Origin: an uncultured Desulfuromonadales bacterium
GTDB lineage: Bacteria > Desulfobacterota > Desulfuromonadia > Geobacterales > CAIOGM01
DNA length: 64,000 nucleotides
Direction of reading: 5' to 3'
Assembly (NCBI GenBank): GCA_903929485.1
Contig: CAIYUY010000021.1
Span: 830 to 64,829 of the forward strand
The translations under genes and the position numbers were made by a program. Below the pieces are notes generated by a model. That model was not told where the DNA came from, did no database searches, and saw only the letters and a list, made by a program, of their open reading frames with translations. How positions within the stretch are numbered: the first letter of the stretch is position 1; each line of letters opens with the position of its first letter. Shown piece after piece: positions 4,253 to 34,133 of this stretch.

Positions 4253-5080
4253 ATGGACAACATCTTCAGCGCGGCGGCCGCCGCCATCAAAAACGCCCGG
4301 GCCCTGATCATCACCGCCGGAGCGGGAATGGGGGTGGATTCGGGCCTCCCCGACTTTCGCGGTAACCAGGGATTCTGGCAGGCCTATCCCCCCTACCAGC
4401 GACTGGGACTCTCCTTCCAGGATGCGGCCAATCCGGATCAGTTCCAGCAAGACCCCCTCTTCGGTTGGGGATTCTACGGCCACCGACTCAACCTCTACCG
4501 GGAAACGGTTCCCCACACCGGCTTTGCCCTCCTCCGGGAGTGGATCCAGCGGTTCAACCTGGACTGCTTCGTGGCGACCTCCAACGTGGACGGCCAGTTT
4601 CAGAAAGCCGGTTTCGATGACAAGCAGATCCTCGAAGTTCACGGCTCAATCCACCACCTCCAATGCCTCACCCCCTGCGGAATGAACATCTGGCCCAATC
4701 GGGAAAAGATCAGCGTGGATACGGTCACCATGCGGTCGCGCAGCATCCCCAAATGTATTCACTGCGGCGCCACGTCTCGCCCCAATATCCTCATGTTCGG
4801 TGACTATTCCTGGATCAGTAATCGGACCGACCTGCAGGAGGAGCGGCTTCAGGAGTTCCTGGCTCGGCATGATGGCAGCAAAATAGCCATCGTGGAGTGC
4901 GGCGCCGGGACCGCCATCCCCACCATTCGCTACCTGGGAGAACGACTGGGGAAACGCCACGGCGCAACCCTCATCAGGATCAACCCGCGAGAGCCCCAGG
5001 CTCCGAAACCGCACCTCTCCCTCCCCTACGGAGCACGGGAAGGATTACTCAGTATTGAGGCGGAACTGACTGCCGGTTAA
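4253..5080 (+). CDS. SIR2-family NAD-dependent protein deacylase (sirtuin)
   Basis: Contains GAGMGVDSGLPDFRG, TSNVDG, the catalytic HG (EVHGS) and a Cys4 zinc ribbon (C..C...C..C). Confidence 0.85.
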   Translation: MDNIFSAAAAAIKNARALIITAGAGMGVDSGLPDFRGNQGFWQAYPPYQRLGLSFQDAANPDQFQQDPLFGWGFYGHRLNLYRETVPHTGFALLREWIQRFNLDCFVATSNVDGQFQKAGFDDKQILEVHGSIHHLQCLTPCGMNIWPNREKISVDTVTMRSRSIPKCIHCGATSRPNILMFGDYSWISNRTDLQEERLQEFLARHDGSKIAIVECGAGTAIPTIRYLGERLGKRHGATLIRINPREPQAPKPHLSLPYGAREGLLSIEAELTAG

Positions 5081-5159
5081 CTATTTACCCTTGCGATTTT
5101 TTGGCGGCATGGATATACTAAAGTCGGAATTAGAACTTGCGAGGGGCGACCCTCATGTG

Positions 5160-5200
5160 CCCTAGCTGACTTTCCCTCCTAGTCGCTAGGGTGTTTTTTG
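5160..5200 (+). terminator. Intrinsic terminator candidate downstream of the sirtuin gene
   Basis: CCCTAGC ... GCTAGGG stem followed by TGTTTTTTGTTTG. Confidence 0.5.
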
Positions 5201-18839: not shown

Positions 18840-18911
18840 CCAAGGAATCGTTTGACATCCGCCCGGTGTACTGTTAAAAGGAAACCTACAATTTATCCTA
18901 TCGTACAGCTG

Positions 18912-19086
18912 CTTGCGTCGGTCTCCGGAGAGATCCGGGCCAACGCGAGTTAAAAGGGAAGAAGGTGAAAATCCTTTGCTGTCCCGCAACTGTGAACGGT
19001 GATGAAAGCCGCGAAGTACGCCGCTAATTCTTTCAGGAAGGCGCGACGAATTCAGTGACCCGTAAGTCCGGAAACCTGCGCGTTCG
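18912..19086 (+). promoter_or_regulatory. Cobalamin (B12) riboswitch
   Basis: GGTCTCC...GTTAAAAGGGAAGAAGGTGAAAATCC..GCTGTCCCGCAACTGTGA...GCCGCT..GGAAGGC...AGTCCGGAAACCTGC matches the B12-element core as I remember it. It lies upstream of cob genes. Confidence 0.8.
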
Positions 19087-19158
19087 ACCGTTTCACCAAG
19101 CACCCCAGCAGGAGAGGCGACGAAACCTGTCGGCCGTTGTCTCACCCCGGTTTTCGTA

Positions 19159-19189: not shown

Positions 19190-19233
19190 CATGTCACGTA
19201 TCATCCTCATTACCGGCGGCGCCTCCCTCCTGA

Positions 19234-19356
19234 CCTGGTGGCTCCGCCGCTGGGATCACCGGCGACATCATCGGCTTCACCTGCGAACTGACCGAAACCG
19301 CCGTCCTGCTCCTCATCGTGGCGCTCTACCGGCAAGGGAGTATCAACCGACCATGA
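19234..19356 (+). pseudogene. cobS: C-terminal ~40-codon tail of cobalamin synthase (CobS-like)
   Basis: My translation in the frame that starts at 19234 (+1 relative to the track ORF at 19191) gives PGGSAAGITGDIIGFTCELTETAVLLLIVALYRQGSINRP*. The G-x-TGD-x-x-G...E...LL tail is CobS-like. Its TGA overlaps the cobC ATG (ATGA). Confidence 0.5.
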
Positions 19357-19955
19357 CACCCAAGACCCGTATCTACCTGATTCGCCATGGCGAAGTCGAG
19401 GGGGCGGCATCACCACGCTACAACGGCCAAAGGGACGTGGCGCTCACCCCGCGAGGACGAGAACAGTACCAGGCAATGGCCCAGCGGTTGGCTACAGAAA
19501 AGATCACCGCCTGCTATGCCAGCGATCTCAGTCGTTGCGCCTGGGGGGCCGGCCTCATCGCTCCCTATTTCGGCATCGAACCTCAGCTGACCTCCGCCCT
19601 GCGGGAGCTGAATATCGGTGACTGGGAGGGGATGACCTGGCAGGAACTGATGACATGCTATCCGGCAGAGTGGCAGGCCCGACTGCACGACATCGTCAAC
19701 TTCCGGGTTCCCAACGGCGAGAATCTCCTGGACGTTCAGGCACGGGTCATCCCGAAAATCCGACAGATCGTGGCGGCCCACCCTGATGAAGAGCTCCTGA
19801 TCGTGGGACATGGCGGCGTTAACCGGGTCATTCTCCTGGATGCCCTGGGCGCCCCTCTCTCGTCCCTGTTCAACATGGAGCAGAGCTACTGCGCCCTCAA
19901 CATCATCGATTACTACGACGACGGCAAGACAGTAGTGAAATTGCTGAACGGATAA
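19353..19955 (+). CDS. cobC: Histidine-phosphatase family, alpha-ribazole phosphatase-like
   Basis: RIYLIRHGE..., the conserved His region VGHGGV, and its position downstream of the B12 riboswitch. The start is moved in from 19191. Confidence 0.75.
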   Translation: MTPKTRIYLIRHGEVEGAASPRYNGQRDVALTPRGREQYQAMAQRLATEKITACYASDLSRCAWGAGLIAPYFGIEPQLTSALRELNIGDWEGMTWQELMTCYPAEWQARLHDIVNFRVPNGENLLDVQARVIPKIRQIVAAHPDEELLIVGHGGVNRVILLDALGAPLSSLFNMEQSYCALNIIDYYDDGKTVVKLLNG

Positions 19956-19998: not shown

Positions 19999-21774
19999 AT
20001 GAACTCCTATCCCACCGTACTGCTGGAATCGTTCAGACCGGGAGAGTTCGGCCGGTCGTTTTTGTTCCATGGACTGAAGCGGATCATCACGGCCCAGAGC
20101 CCCACCCAGGTCATTCCCGCTTTTCTGGAGATCGAAAGCGCCGTCACGGCGGGATACCATGTCGCAGGCTTCGTGGGGTACGAAGCCGCCGCAGCCCTCA
20201 ACCCCGATCTCCCCGCGGGTAAGAGCAGCGATCTCCCGCTCCTCTGGTTCGGCGTCTTTCGGGAGCGGAACCAGGTCACGGCGGGAGAAACCGGCGGACT
20301 GGGAGGTGACTGCCGGGTCACAGCGGCGGCGCCGTCACCGGACGTAGAGAGCTATCGCACGAAAGTGGCTGCAATCCGTGAGTATATCGCCGCCGGCCAT
20401 ACTTATCAGGTCAACTACACGATCCGCCAAAGGTTCACCGTTGACGGCGACCCGTTCGCCCTTTACCGCCGCATCTGCCGCAACCAGCGGGCCCCCTTCT
20501 CGGCCTGGATCGACACCGGCCGTTTCACAATCCTCTCCGCTTCACCGGAACTTTTTTTCTCCCTGAAAAACGGCAATCTGATGATGCGCCCCATGAAGGG
20601 AACGGCGCCCCGGTCACCTGCCCCTGACGATGACCGCCTCGCCGAAAAGGAGCTCCGGGAAAGTTCCAAGGAGCGAGCGGAAAATATCATGATCGTGGAC
20701 CTGGTGAGAAACGATCTTTCCGTCATCGCCCAGCCCGGCACGGTAGCGGTGACATCGCTCCTGGATCCGGAAAGCTATCCCACGGTTCACCAGCTGACCT
20801 CCACGGTGACGGCGCGGCTAAAGGTTGGAACCCCCCTGGTGGATATCTTCCGGGCGCTCTTCCCCTGCGGCTCGGTGACCGGCGCCCCCAAGAGACGAAC
20901 CATGGAGATCATCAACCAACAGGAAGAGTCCCCGCGTGGAGTCTACTGTGGGGCGGTCGGTTTCATCTCTCCCGGACCGGAGGCGCTGTTCAGCGTCGCC
21001 ATCCGGACGGCGCTCCTGGACAGAGAGAAGGGGACCGGCGAACTGGGAATCGGCAGCGGGATTACCTGGGACTCCCGCGCCGGAGCCGAATTTGCGGAGT
21101 GCCTGGCCAAGTCCGCTTTTTTGACGATGGAAGCAAACGATTTTTCCCTGCTGGAGAGCATCCTTTGGGAGGAGGGCTCATTCTTCCTCCTGGACCGGCA
21201 TCTGCGCCGGTTGGCGCTCTCCGCCCGACGGTTCGGGTTCCGGTTCGACCTCCCCCTGATCATCGGGATGCTGGAGGACGCCGTAAGAGAGCTCGCCACG
21301 CCGCACAAGATCCGGCTGCTCCTCTCCGCCGACGGTGATACGACCCTGGAGGCTCTCCCCCTCCCCCCACCCCCGGCAAACCAGGCGCCGGCATTGGTGG
21401 CTCTTGCAAAGCAGCGGGTCAGTTCCTCCGACCTGTTTCTCTACCACAAGACAACGCGACGGACGCTCTACGACCAGGAGCGACGCCGGCGACCGGAGTG
21501 CGCCGATGTCATCTTCCTGAACGAAAGAGACGAGATAACCGAGGGGAGTTACACCAACGTGGTGGCTCTTCTTGATGGTGAACTGGTCACACCGCCGGTA
21601 CGGTGCGCTCTTCTCCCCGGCACGTTCCGGGAGGAGCTCATTGAAAAAGGAATCCTCCGGGAAAAGATGCTGACCCTGGCGGATCTCCGGAGAGCCGACA
21701 AACTCCTCCTCATCAATTCGGTGCGACGGTGGCAAAAGGTGTATCTGGCCTCCGATTGTTCTCTTGACGTTTAA
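19999..21774 (+). CDS. pabB: Aminodeoxychorismate synthase component I fused to aminodeoxychorismate lyase
   Basis: The chorismate-binding core (SPELFF...MRPMKGT...ENIMIVDLVRND...GSVTGAPK...GIGSGI) is followed by a class-IV aminotransferase-like C-terminal domain. Confidence 0.85.
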   Translation: MNSYPTVLLESFRPGEFGRSFLFHGLKRIITAQSPTQVIPAFLEIESAVTAGYHVAGFVGYEAAAALNPDLPAGKSSDLPLLWFGVFRERNQVTAGETGGLGGDCRVTAAAPSPDVESYRTKVAAIREYIAAGHTYQVNYTIRQRFTVDGDPFALYRRICRNQRAPFSAWIDTGRFTILSASPELFFSLKNGNLMMRPMKGTAPRSPAPDDDRLAEKELRESSKERAENIMIVDLVRNDLSVIAQPGTVAVTSLLDPESYPTVHQLTSTVTARLKVGTPLVDIFRALFPCGSVTGAPKRRTMEIINQQEESPRGVYCGAVGFISPGPEALFSVAIRTALLDREKGTGELGIGSGITWDSRAGAEFAECLAKSAFLTMEANDFSLLESILWEEGSFFLLDRHLRRLALSARRFGFRFDLPLIIGMLEDAVRELATPHKIRLLLSADGDTTLEALPLPPPPANQAPALVALAKQRVSSSDLFLYHKTTRRTLYDQERRRRPECADVIFLNERDEITEGSYTNVVALLDGELVTPPVRCALLPGTFREELIEKGILREKMLTLADLRRADKLLLINSVRRWQKVYLASDCSLDV

Positions 21775-31108: not shown

Positions 31109-32110
31109 TTATTTCCCCAGGAATGGGGTCAGGATATCATAGGCGAGGAAAGAGACGACTCCGGAGGCTGGGATGGTGAGGACCCAGGCAATGACGATGC
31201 GACCGGCTATTTTCCAGTTTACCGCGGTAAGCCGCTTGGTCAGGCCGACCCCCAGTATGGTCGAGGTAATGACATGAGTTGTGCTGGTTGGCATCCCGAA
31301 GGCGGACGCTCCAAGGATGACCCCAGCCGATGCGGTCTCCACCACAAAACCGTTCACCGGCGTCAGCTTTACGAAGTCATGACCCACGGTCTTGATGATT
31401 CGCCAGCCGCCGGCGGCGGTACCGCAGGCCATGGCGATGGCGCACGCCATCTTGACCCATACCGGCACGACAAAGCTCTGAAGTGTCCCATAACTCACCA
31501 GCGCCATGGTGATGACCCCCATGGATTTCTGTGCGTCGGCGGTGCCGTGGGAAAAAGCCATGAAAGCAGCCGACACAACCTGGAGTTTTCGAAAATTACG
31601 ATTAAGATTTGGTGGCGCCTTCACATGGAAAGCCCACATTATTCCAAGCATGATGATAAAGCCGACGATGGTGCCGAGAACCGGCGAGATAAGAAGTGCA
31701 AGAATTATTTTGCGCAGACCGCCCCAGTGAAGCGCCGCGACCCCGTCATGGGCGATGACCGCCCCCATGATCCCGCCGATGATGGCGTGAGACGATGACG
31801 AGGGGAGCCCGTAATACCAGGTAATAAGATCCCAAATGATTGCCCCGGCCACCGCGGCGAGAACCACCATCTGAGTGATATGCGAGGCGTCAACAATCTC
31901 CTTCCCGATGGTTCCGGCGACCTTGGTGGAGATCATCGCCCCGGCGAAGTTCAGCGTAGCCGCCATGATAATGGCCGACCTGATGGAGAGCGCACGGGTG
32001 GAGATGCAGGTGGCGATGGCGTTGGCGGTATCGTGAAACCCGTTGATATAGTCGAATGCCAGGGCCGCGAAAATAACCAGCCCCAGCATGAGGAGCGATG
32101 TTTCAGGCAT
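31109..32110 (-). CDS. pit: Inorganic phosphate transporter, PiT family
   Basis: FDYINGFHDTANAIAT and a second GTADAQK/THV repeat; polytopic. Confidence 0.95.
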   Translation of the reverse strand: MPETSLLMLGLVIFAALAFDYINGFHDTANAIATCISTRALSIRSAIIMAATLNFAGAMISTKVAGTIGKEIVDASHITQMVVLAAVAGAIIWDLITWYYGLPSSSSHAIIGGIMGAVIAHDGVAALHWGGLRKIILALLISPVLGTIVGFIIMLGIMWAFHVKAPPNLNRNFRKLQVVSAAFMAFSHGTADAQKSMGVITMALVSYGTLQSFVVPVWVKMACAIAMACGTAAGGWRIIKTVGHDFVKLTPVNGFVVETASAGVILGASAFGMPTSTTHVITSTILGVGLTKRLTAVNWKIAGRIVIAWVLTIPASGVVSFLAYDILTPFLGK

Positions 32111-32720
32111 TTTTCAGAACCACGCTTTCAAGAATATTGGCGGCATCCTCGCATTTATCCGTGGCGCGCTCCAGGGTTTCGTAAATCTCTTTCCACTTGA
32201 GGAGCTGAATGGGGTCTTTCTCCTCATCAAAGAGCCGGCTAATTGCCTCGCGGCAGACCCGATCCGCTTCATTCTCCAGGGAGTTGACCTCAACACAGTA
32301 TTCCGAGATCGGCTCCAGCTTCCCTCCCAGCTTTCCCACCGCTCTTTCCAGGGTCTGGCACGCCTTGAGGATGATAAAAGCGAGTTCCTTGGATTCCGGA
32401 GTCGGTTTTTCCACGTTATACATGACGATGCGCTGGGCGGAGGCGTCGATGAGATCGAGAATATCATCCAGGGCGGAGGAGAGAGCGTAGATGTCCTCCC
32501 GGTCAAAGGGGGTAATGAAACTCTTGTTGAGCTTCTTGATGATCTCGTGTGTCTGAGAATCACCCTTATGCTCGACCTCCTTGATCTTACGCTGACTCGT
32601 CACCGGATCGACGAAATAATCCAGGAGTTCCTTCAGCAGCTGGGCCCCCTCAACGATATTGGCGGCCATCTCACGGAACATCTGAAAGAACTTTTCATCC
32701 TTGGGGATCAGGCCGAACAT
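32103..32720 (-). CDS. DUF47 / PhoU-like Pit accessory protein
   Basis: MFGLIPKDEKFFQMF...FDREDIYALSSALDDILD...; overlaps the pit start by 8 nt. The start is moved in from 32903. Confidence 0.9.
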   Translation of the reverse strand: MFGLIPKDEKFFQMFREMAANIVEGAQLLKELLDYFVDPVTSQRKIKEVEHKGDSQTHEIIKKLNKSFITPFDREDIYALSSALDDILDLIDASAQRIVMYNVEKPTPESKELAFIILKACQTLERAVGKLGGKLEPISEYCVEVNSLENEADRVCREAISRLFDEEKDPIQLLKWKEIYETLERATDKCEDAANILESVVLKNA

Positions 32721-32873
32721 ACTCTCCTCCGGCGTTGCTTGACCTGCGTGCAACGCATTCTCCGCATGGATTTGACAATCTCGCCACACTAGCACAACCT
32801 CCATTCTTTGCCCACTTAAAACTTCCATAATTTCTTCTTGACAGAATCGTTCGGAATCAGCGATTATAACCCC

Positions 32874-32972
32874 ATGAATATTTTCGGAGCATCCGCACTG
32901 CACTCTTTTTCCTTTTGGTACGGCTATTATTTTAGCCCGTCTACCCGGGGAAGAGGTCTGGATCGAGGATAG
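32874..32972 (+). promoter_or_regulatory. Candidate leader peptide ORF rich in Phe/Trp/Tyr upstream of DAHP synthase
   Basis: My translation gives MNIFGASALHSFSFWYGYYFSPSTRGRGLDRG*. TTGACA at 32838-43 with GATTAT 18 nt later would place the transcript start at about the ATG. No SD sequence is present. Confidence 0.35.
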
Positions 32973-33113
32973 CAGCCGACATCAAACAGACCAAAGCCGA
33001 GGGTGGACAAAGAGAGCGTATCTCCCCCCGGCTTTTAATTTCCAGAGTGTGCGGCCGGGGGATAATCTCTTCTGGCCGTTTTTTGGTTTTTGGCGACAAA
33101 AGGAGCAGACAAG

Positions 33114-34133
33114 ATGATCATCGTCATGAAGGCGGGAGCAACGCGGCAGGATCGGGACGAGGTGCTGGAGCGGATCAAGGAGCTGGGTTACCAGCCCCAT
33201 GTGATTCACGGCACGACCAGGGATGTCATCGGCGCCATCGGTGACGAACGAGGCAAGCTTATCCTCCACTCACTGGAGTCCATGCATGGGGTGGAGAATA
33301 TAGTGCCCATCCTCAAGCCTTATAAACTGGCGTCACGGGAGATGAAACGGGAAACGACCCTCATCCGGCTGAGCGATACGGTGGCCATCGGCGGCGATGA
33401 GATCATTGTCATGGCCGGTCCCTGCTCGGTGGAAAGCGAAGAGCAGATCCTGGAGTGCGCCCTGGCGGTGAAGGCGGCGGGCGCCCAGGTGCTCCGTGGC
33501 GGGGCATTCAAACCCCGCACCTCCCCCTACTCCTTCCAGGGGATGGAAGAGGAAGGATTGAAACTTTTAGCCAAGGCCAGGGAGCTCACCGGCCTCCCGG
33601 TGGTAACCGAGGTCATCAATCCGGAAACAGCGGAACTGGTGGCCGAGTATGCCGATATCCTCCAGATCGGCGCCCGCAACTCCCAGAACTTCGCCCTGCT
33701 GAAGAAAGTGGGACAGCTCAAACGACCGGTCCTTCTCAAGCGCGGCATGGCCATGAGCATCCAAGAATTTCTCATGAGCGCAGAATACATCCTTTCCGAG
33801 GGGAATCAGCAGGTCATCCTCTGCGAACGGGGAATCAGAACCTTCGAGACGGCCACCCGTAATACCCTGGACCTATCCGCCATCCCGGTCCTCCGGGGGA
33901 TGACCCATCTCCCCGTTATCGCCGACCCTTCCCACGGAACCGGCAATTACCACTATGTTGCTCCCATGGCCTATGCGGCAGTGGCGGCCGGAGCCGACGG
34001 CCTCATGATAGAGGTTCACCCCGACCCGGAACGGGCGACCTCCGACGGGCCCCAGTCGCTGAAGCCGTCAAAGTTCGCCTCCATGATGACGACACTGCGT
34101 AAATTCGCCGACGCCGCCGACCGACGACTGTAA
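33114..34133 (+). CDS. 3-deoxy-7-phosphoheptulonate (DAHP) synthase, type I-beta with N-terminal ferredoxin-like regulatory domain
   Basis: MIIVMKAG... is the regulatory domain. The core has GPCSVES...[17 protein letters not shown]...QIGARN...KRG...DPSH. AAAGGAG RBS. Confidence 0.9.

Follow-up and report, generated by a model that had tools for sequence, protein, structure and literature searches.

The window analysed here is a 64-kb stretch (64,000 nucleotides, nt) of contig CAIYUY010000021.1 from an uncultured Desulfuromonadales bacterium. Our subject is a 395-nt intergenic region in it, between a PhoU_div/PiT gene pair on the minus strand and a gene for DAHP synthase (3-deoxy-7-phosphoheptulonate synthase) on the plus strand, which appears to hold an attenuator built around an aromatic leader peptide. 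The synthase matches PF00793 (2e-85), PF18152 (8e-22) and NF006421 (517 bits), and its start lies 240 nt 3' of a short leader open reading frame (ORF) that gene callers do not predict (Table 1). An earlier sequence-only reading of the window had pointed to this ORF, to a nine-residue stretch within it containing three Phe, one Trp and three Tyr, and to a DAHP synthase about 240 nt downstream; inspection of the sequence and the protein matches bear out all three. The stretch, FSFWYGYYF, is the sole stop-free nine-residue window with at least seven aromatics in all six frames of the 64 kb, and as many as six aromatics per nine residues occur at just three further places.

Table 1. Features of the DAHP synthase leader region, in window coordinates.
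Feature	Position	Strand	Remarks
Candidate -35 box TTGACA	32838..32843	+	promoter scan
Candidate -10 box GATTAT	32862..32867	+	ends 6 nt before ATG
Leader-peptide ORF	32874..32972	+	ATG 32874 to TAG 32972, 32 codons, MNIFGASALHSFSFWYGYYFSPSTRGRGLDRG
Regulatory codon run F-S-F-W-Y-G-Y-Y-F	32907..32933	+	3 Phe, 1 Trp, 3 Tyr codons
Segment 0, UGGUACGGC	32916..32924	+	Trp-Tyr-Gly codons; naked-RNA pairing with 5' flank and start of A; tentative
Segment A, GUCUACCCGG	32939..32948	+	inside ORF, 5 nt past the last aromatic codon; pairs with B; GUCUGCCC-like
Inner hairpin of A-B loop	32955..32992	+	in the window fold only; contains leader stop UAG 32970-72
Segment B, AAAGCCGAGGGUGGAC	32993..33008	+	after stop codon; 3' part pairs with A, whole with C
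Segment C, UCUCCCCCCGGC, then UUUUAAUUU	33021..33041	+	pairs with B or D
Segment D, GCGGCCGGGGG	33051..33061	+	pairs with C (antiterminator) or E
Segment E, CUCUUCUGGCCG, plus U-run UUUUUUGGUUUUU	33067..33091	+	pairs with D
DAHP synthase Shine-Dalgarno (SD) motif AAAGGAG	33099..33105	+	read from the sequence; outside both hairpins
DAHP synthase, type I-beta, N-terminal ferredoxin-like regulatory domain	33114..34133	+

One genome per species was scanned for relatives of the DAHP synthase, which yielded 80 loci, the nearest enzyme being 93% identical and from an uncultured Geobacter, which points to a Geobacteraceae-like source of the window. An ORF scan detected an aromatic mini-ORF in 61 of these loci, in a stop-free frame 180–240 nt upstream of the enzyme start, with 5–8 aromatics in nine residues, an ATG start in nearly all and a mean length of 28 codons. 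A covariance model together with inspection added five loci, three with weaker versions of the leader (L029, L047, L061), one with the leader on a truncated contig (L033) and one with an HMGL-like gene between leader and enzyme (L077). About 65 of the 80 orthologous loci carry equivalent leader ORFs, such as MNSNRFYIAFSFYFWFGFYFRPSARVEV in Geobacteraceae and MDRMNSSGIVKFFYFWSYYYFPLVCPSLRRN in Syntrophales, which keep a start, an open frame of 27–35 codons and a stop across phyla in U/A-rich sequence. The element is present in Geobacteraceae, Desulfuromonadales, Syntrophales and Smithella, Thermodesulfovibrio and Methylomirabilota, and absent from the Nitrospinota, Ignavibacteria and Tectomicrobia loci among the 80. 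The sequence-only reading had proposed an alignment of orthologous leaders as a check, and ORF and aromatic run are indeed kept upstream of orthologous DAHP synthases in several phyla.

Across 58 leaders, Phe, Tyr and Trp account for 18.8%, 9.7% and 4.3% of residues (33% together), and exactly one Trp codon is found in 47 of them; the run is conserved as a class of amino acids, with varying codons. Behind it, five RNA segments (A–E) are common to every version of the element. In 52 of 61 loci, 5–6 nt separate the start of segment A from the last aromatic codon. The sequence of A (GUCUGCC) is translated as P-S-A-R in 35 loci and as V-C-P in 24. Because the same segment is read in two frames in different clades, what is conserved here is RNA and not peptide.

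Upstream of the ORF, the combination TTGACA-18 nt-GATTAT, which the sequence-only reading had named as a promoter candidate, is the top promoter-like site of the region (10/12 positions matched), and no SD-like motif was found 5' of the leader ATG in the window or in 27 Geobacteraceae loci. In these loci TTGACA is exact in 26 (TTGACT in L011), the spacer between the boxes measures 17–19 nt (16 in one locus) and 6–9 nt separate the -10 box from the ATG throughout, 7 nt in 20 loci. Since the promoter-to-ATG spacing is fixed and an SD motif is lacking, we predict that the leader mRNA is leaderless in Geobacteraceae and starts at or next to the A of the AUG, an idea that the earlier reading had also voiced and whose underlying geometry holds in 27/27 loci. 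An equal layout is found in L027, L030, L041 (TTGATT) and L072 (TTGACG), which include Thermodesulfovibrio and one Methylomirabilota locus; many Syntrophales versions carry SD-like motifs ahead of the leader ORF instead.

In the window, the core of segment A, GUCUACCC (32939-46), lies 5–6 nt past the last aromatic codon. Segments B and C form a hairpin (terminator 1, 32993-33035) that is followed by UUUU and has an energy of -17.9 kcal/mol in isolation, and segments D and E form a 12-pair hairpin (terminator 2, 33051-33079) that is followed by TTTTTTGGTTTTT (33079-91) and reaches -19.5 kcal/mol; the latter was the only terminator-like site flagged in a terminator scan of the region. As the 3' half of B also complements A, and C complements D, the segments can adopt two mutually exclusive registers, B:C with D:E or A:B with C:D, and the isolated alternatives have energies of -29.1 kcal/mol (A to B, including the inner hairpin) and -20.6 kcal/mol (the antiterminator C to D). 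The sequence-only reading had assigned part of this architecture: its pairings of CCCCCGGC (33025-32) with GCCGGGGG (33054-61) and of CGGCC (33052-56) with GGCCG stand, except that GGCCG lies at 33074-78 and not at 33073-77, and the terminator stem that it called short has 12 pairs with a T-run behind it. Its proposal of attenuation is supported by the checks that can be computed, and was incomplete in that it missed terminator 1 and the in-ORF segment A.

Two other roles for these hairpins were rejected. Translational control by sequestration of the SD motif does not apply, because the motif (33099-105) sits outside both hairpins, nor do the hairpins terminate transcription of the gene next to the region: PhoU_div (32103-32723), on the minus strand, is divergent and has its 5' end, not its 3' end, towards them.

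Both registers are supported across the relatives. Alignment-free duplex energies of neighbouring segments have medians of -20.6 (A:B), -17.2 (B:C), -15.8 (C:D) and -17.5 kcal/mol (D:E), with z-scores of -2.5 to -3.6 against shuffled sequences, whereas non-neighbouring segments reach -6 to -12 kcal/mol with z above -1.5. We further used an unfitted MAFFT alignment of 60 sequences that begins 4 nt upstream of segment A. On this alignment, the terminator register (B:C and D:E) has standard pairs in 90.3% of cells, compared with 33–60% when the partner is slid by 1–3 columns, 15 pairs changed on both sides, and a covariation of 0.415 against a shuffle mean of 0.191, a value reached in 0/500 shuffles. 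Taken individually, the two terminator helices are 86% and 95% paired over the 60 sequences, with compensatory changes present, and the U-tracts after the terminators, including the U residues behind C, are at least 90% conserved. The antiterminator register (A:B and C:D) is paired in 88.0% of cells, compared with 36–53% for slid partners, with 12 doubly changed pairs and a covariation of 0.311 against a shuffle mean of 0.215, again reached in 0/500 shuffles; its C:D helix is paired in 91.4% of cells and has four pairs with double changes. One column structure cannot fit clades with a CCGG core and clades with a CCAUGG core, which are offset by one pair, so that the B:C pairing count underestimates the Geobacteraceae.

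Several variants are informative here. Thermodesulfovibrio has GUCUAUC as A and GAUAGAC as B, loci L032–L040 have GCCUGGCC and GGGCGGGC in these places, L043 has the outer pair flipped, and L020 has both segments rewritten (CUCCGCUCC with GGGGGUGGAG). The stem cores of the two terminators shift jointly between clades (CCGG, CCAUGG, CCACGG/CCGUGG, CCGCGG), and because they change together C stays complementary to D. The alternative structures postulated by the sequence-only reading, a C:D antiterminator and a D:E terminator, are in this sense conserved, with compensatory changes.

Folding with parts of the leader masked, as a ribosome would mask them, gave results consistent with a switch. Masking A makes both terminators form in 59 of 61 loci; when A is left free, 29 loci form A:B and 32 form B:C, at nearly equal energies, as expected of a switch. 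In the window, a footprint centred on the Trp codon (UGG) leaves the transcript, as far as D, with A:B and C:D paired; with the ribosome on A, terminator 1 forms, and with the ribosome at the stop codon both terminators form together with a further hairpin, 0:A. The last of these was also seen in naked RNA folded from the AUG: in about 38 of 60 loci, which without exception are of the Geobacter, Desulfuromonadales or Thermodesulfovibrio type, the Trp-(Phe/Tyr)-Gly codons (UGG-UWC-GGC) tie up segment A. The 0:A hairpin of the window has an energy of -15.1 kcal/mol (z -2.0), and in L030 three UGG codons match a variant A (z -4.4). This pairing would explain the conserved Gly codon amid the aromatic run and would give the classical default of termination without translation. 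The proposed attenuator has at least five segments, and probably six.

We consider it very likely that the element controls the DAHP synthase gene by ribosome-mediated transcription attenuation with a leader peptide, and that it senses the charging of tRNA-Phe, tRNA-Tyr and tRNA-Trp. In the model that we propose, the transcription start, the ribosome positions and stall geometry, termination itself and the amino-acid response are predicted from the features above, and the segments would act as a six-part relay in which 0:A, B:C and D:E compete with A:B and C:D. Transcription would start at or next to the AUG of the 32-codon leader ORF, as the promoter geometry suggests. When aromatic amino acids are plentiful, the ribosome would pass the run, cover A and reach the stop codon while B and C emerge; with A covered, B:C (terminator 1) and D:E (terminator 2) would form, and transcription would end ahead of the gene. 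When any of the three aromatic aminoacyl-tRNAs is scarce, the ribosome would stall within F12–F20 with its leading edge short of A and, in the Geobacter type, would additionally melt the 0:A hairpin. Segment A, being free, would then pair with B, the released C would pair with D, neither terminator would form, and the polymerase would enter the gene.

The same conserved hairpins could in principle be governed without the ribosome, by a ligand- or protein-binding RNA switch (riboswitch, TRAP- or T-box-like) that controls both terminators, with the small ORF a bystander. In a Geobacter genome paper of 2009, what is very probably this region is listed under "possible promoters and riboswitches", as a "predicted short RNA element" (PMC2700814), and the best-conserved nucleotides are indeed those of the RNA segments and not of the peptide residues. 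We nevertheless regard such a switch as very improbable: the ORF retains its start, its 27–35-codon frame and its stop across phyla, the aromatic enrichment persists despite varying codons, and the distance from the run to A is fixed although the frame differs between clades. Nor did Rfam, T-box included, return a match when E values up to 10 were allowed; on reading the sequence we noticed no repeated (G/U)AG triplets, a dedicated scan not having been made, and no conserved unpaired pocket is evident, nearly all conserved bases lying within the alternative helices. If the peptide does matter, it might instead act as a TnaC-type arrest peptide that senses free aromatic amino acids in the ribosome tunnel rather than tRNA charging at the codons, a reading to which the nearly invariant single Trp, the Pro that often follows within a few residues and the stop codon in a structured region would be congenial. 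Arrest peptides require a conserved amino-acid sequence, and here the residues after the run are wholly different between clades (PSAR... and VCPSLRR...), the same RNA being read in another frame, while Phe, Tyr and Trp swap freely; moreover, no Rho site is needed, since both hairpins resemble intrinsic terminators with U-runs. This makes tunnel sensing exceedingly improbable in our view.

A narrower possibility concerns how much of the leader is regulated: the ribosome might act on B:C only, by the 0:A, A:B and B:C logic, with D:E acting on its own, as a partly leaky terminator or as an element of RNA stability, and C:D arising as a by-product of stem similarity. A duplication could have made B resemble D and C resemble E, D:E is kept in the minimum-energy fold of 48 of 61 loci even with A:B formed, and L056 and related Ala-type leaders (see below) have a single terminator. 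Against this, a strong constitutive terminator directly before the SD motif would silence the gene, C:D matches D:E in stability in the window (-20.6 and -19.5 kcal/mol), and the joint changes of the stem cores that keep C complementary to D would be left without explanation, so that we judge regulation of the first hairpin alone improbable.

Several observations weigh against the coupled attenuation that we favour. C:D appears in the full-length minimum-energy fold of only 11 of 61 loci, and with E present D:E usually wins; because D:E usually beats C:D at equilibrium, antitermination at the second site would have to be kinetic. Reliance on kinetic trapping is normal for attenuators. Stalling at the final one or two aromatic codons would place the ribosome over the first 1–5 nt of A, the U-tract of terminator 1 is weak in the window (UUUUAAUUU), and folding z-scores are unremarkable both for the whole leader (-1.9) and for 32960-33095, from before the stop codon through terminator 2 (-1.4). 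The 0:A pairing must be regarded as tentative, since its RNAalifold consensus over 38 Geobacter-type sequences is weak (-2.56 kcal/mol) with almost no covariation; its z-scores range from -0.4 to -4.4 across examples, and it is missing in the Syntrophales type, whose leaders would thus default to read-through when untranslated. For this organism and its relatives alike, the case for attenuation is built on sequence and folding.

Other features of the region and of the window were noted alongside. The divergent pair next to the leader encodes a PiT-family phosphate transporter and a PhoU_div (DUF47) protein (31109-32110 and 32103-32723, minus strand), and because these genes diverge from the aro leader the intergenic region must also house their promoter; a second TTGACA lies on the plus strand at 32774-32779. 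A weak promoter-like site, TTTCCA-16 nt-GATAAT (33039-33066, plus strand, 9/12 positions), overlaps segment D in the stretch between the terminators; an active promoter there would start transcription inside E, bypassing both terminators, and by eye the site is not conserved in relatives. The tail of the leader ORF after segment A (32949-32972) contains the SD-like purine runs GGGGAAGAGG and CGAGGAU, and such runs are common at the equivalent position in L049–L080, for example CUCAGGAGGAAU in Syntrophales-type loci; they may serve to pause the ribosome, belong to the inner hairpin or have arisen by chance. In L077 (1780-3001), from a Smithella metagenome-assembled genome (MAG), the aromatic leader MDRKLNVNINVYGYWFYTYFTSVCPSLRRTR (83 bits) is followed by an HMGL-like aldolase-family gene (2005-2970) and then by the DAHP synthase gene, and as both follow the leader the attenuator there would control a two-gene operon.

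We also searched for the element in databases and in the literature. At the gathering thresholds, an Rfam cmscan of the window returned RF00174 and RF01733 only, both elsewhere, and neither T-box nor any leader family (Phe_leader, Trp_leader, His_leader and leu/phe leader among them); at E up to 10, positions 32600-33300 gave a single chance hit of 9 bits. The two matches are a cobalamin riboswitch aptamer (RF00174, 81 bits, 18898-19097, plus strand) upstream of ORFs 19191-19955 and 19999-21774, and an atoC RNA motif (RF01733) at 5112-5198 on the plus strand, with 67.6 bits against a gathering score of 50. Neither NCBIfam nor Pfam has a family that matches three representative leader peptides at E up to 10, and an exact look-up of eight leader peptides in a collection of 15 billion proteins found none on record. 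As the element is absent from Rfam and from leader-peptide families and its ORF is not called, it is invisible to standard annotation. The literature on attenuation of Geobacter or deltaproteobacterial DAHP synthase genes, with the Russian-language attenuation surveys of the Lyubetsky group outside our scope, yielded just the conserved-element note in the 2009 genome paper, which describes a conserved sequence of about 190–270 nt 5' of the Thermotoga-type DAHP synthase "in several Geobacteraceae" that "may participate in regulation", and gives no ORF, structure or mechanism (PMC2700814); a regulon reconstruction in delta-proteobacteria does not mention the element (PMC545781). Judging by its context, and not by the G. 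metallireducens sequence, the element of the 2009 paper is very probably the one in the window.

A related design was observed at a different gene. In L031, a Desulfuromonadaceae MAG, the aromatic-leader model scores 35.8 bits at 4456-4686, ahead of a gene for an AlaA-like class I/II aminotransferase. The leader ORF at this site is Ala-rich (MFMAQQSSISAAPATRACCAAAAADEPASVCCPEGCP), and an A-like segment behind it, UCUGUUGCCC, complements the 5' arm of a terminator with a GGCCAUGG core. Mini-ORFs with Ala runs, such as MDNNQAAARAARAMSAAAAAAVRLEVAQCPGDRL and MLATTAAAAAAVTL, occur at roughly 35–40 of 80 metagenomic aminotransferase relatives (counted from a list) and usually precede a terminator-like GC-rich stretch with a T-run; in the Ala-type metagenome loci L081–L123 the leader lies about 60–260 nt upstream of the match, and an A-like segment and a GGCCAUGG...CCAUGGCCUUUUUU terminator follow it. 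The aromatic-leader model matched 37 of the 80 aminotransferase loci on the plus strand at E up to 0.1, and the 35 loci in which the match spans the model score 15–34 bits, all upstream of the gene and mostly directly so; with L031 included, the Ala-type sites are weak to moderate matches of 15–36 bits. From its sequence, the Ala-rich leader looks like an alanine-sensing attenuator on the same scaffold, and we found no description of such a leader upstream of an AlaA-like aminotransferase. Given these leaders and their terminators, the switch design seems to be reused for another amino acid.

The widespread aromatic-leader family itself is uncatalogued and has not been described as an attenuator. 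More tentatively, and with somewhat less than even confidence, we suggest that it may belong to an uncatalogued modular attenuator family of Desulfuromonadales, Geobacterales, Syntrophales and neighbouring phyla, in which an in-ORF GUCUGCCC-like segment opposes a GGCCAUGG/CCGG-core terminator and the codon runs differ. On this possible scheme, Phe/Tyr/Trp runs would serve DAHP synthase, with two coupled terminators and a leaderless start, and an Ala run the AlaA-like aminotransferase. The aromatic version would then provide the first demonstration of an attenuator that combines all three aromatic amino acids at the entry step of their pathway.

The principle is already known, leader-peptide attenuation being textbook material and an aromatic leader of DAHP synthase being known in Corynebacterium. 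Three features of the element, as predicted from sequence, are notable: the three sensed amino acids, the tandem coupled terminators and the leaderless start. If our reading is correct, the element would explain how the level of the entry enzyme for aromatic synthesis is set in Geobacter, Syntrophus-like bacteria and their relatives. These bacteria matter for metal reduction, syntrophy and bioelectrochemistry, and their amino-acid regulons are poorly known; the element is conserved over at least four phylum-level lineages despite being missing from catalogues. It raises the questions of whether three amino acids share one attenuator, whether a coupled second terminator sharpens the response, and whether a leaderless start aids synchrony between ribosome and RNA polymerase.

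Known systems resemble the element in different respects. For the predicted start, the nearest parallel is Deinococcus deserti, in which fourteen leaderless leader peptides have been mapped (PMC4007540). There, too, translation of the attenuation peptides begins at an AUG placed at the very 5' end of the mRNA, without an SD motif; however, their transcription starts were mapped, whereas that in the window is predicted from promoter spacing alone, and they belong to other genes and another phylum.

The closest known mechanism is that of aroR-aroF in Corynebacterium glutamicum, where an aromatic leader peptide regulates DAHP synthase (Neshat et al. 2014, cited in PMC11802643; PMC4046766, PMC3890552). 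Both systems have a short leader ORF with aromatic codons before the DAHP synthase gene, and in aroR ribosome stalling raises transcription; the phylum differs, and the leaders are compared by description and not by sequence. For aroR, the peptide has a Phe-Tyr-Phe motif only, with a reported response to Phe and none to Tyr. The element here, by contrast, contains 7–11 aromatic codons, among them a near-invariant Trp, and has two terminators in tandem as well as a switch core, GUCUGCCC/GGGCAGAC, that is conserved. The regulated enzymes probably differ in class as well, the window encoding a type I-beta enzyme with a ferredoxin-like domain.

The enterobacterial leaders of pheA (pheL), pheST (pheM) and trp (trpL) likewise work by attenuation within the aromatic pathway, with Phe- or Trp-codon runs, an intrinsic terminator and an antiterminator. 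Each of them senses one amino acid and controls a gene of a terminal branch or a tRNA synthetase, unlike the element here, which has mixed Phe, Tyr and Trp codons, stands at the first common step and showed no similarity to them in sequence or structure with the Rfam models, even with E as high as 10. In architecture, the nearest counterpart is the his leader of Salmonella and Escherichia coli, a multi-hairpin relay of A:B, C:D and E:F against B:C and D:E. It differs in its amino acid and gene, and the Rfam His_leader model has no match here. The his leader has a chain of six segments, and the element at least five and probably six, with mutually exclusive pairings of neighbours; each has a long regulatory codon run, and in both the position of the ribosome would set the register. 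The element described here departs from his in that its middle hairpin carries a conserved U-run, which would couple two terminators, and in that its start is predicted to be leaderless rather than led by an SD motif.

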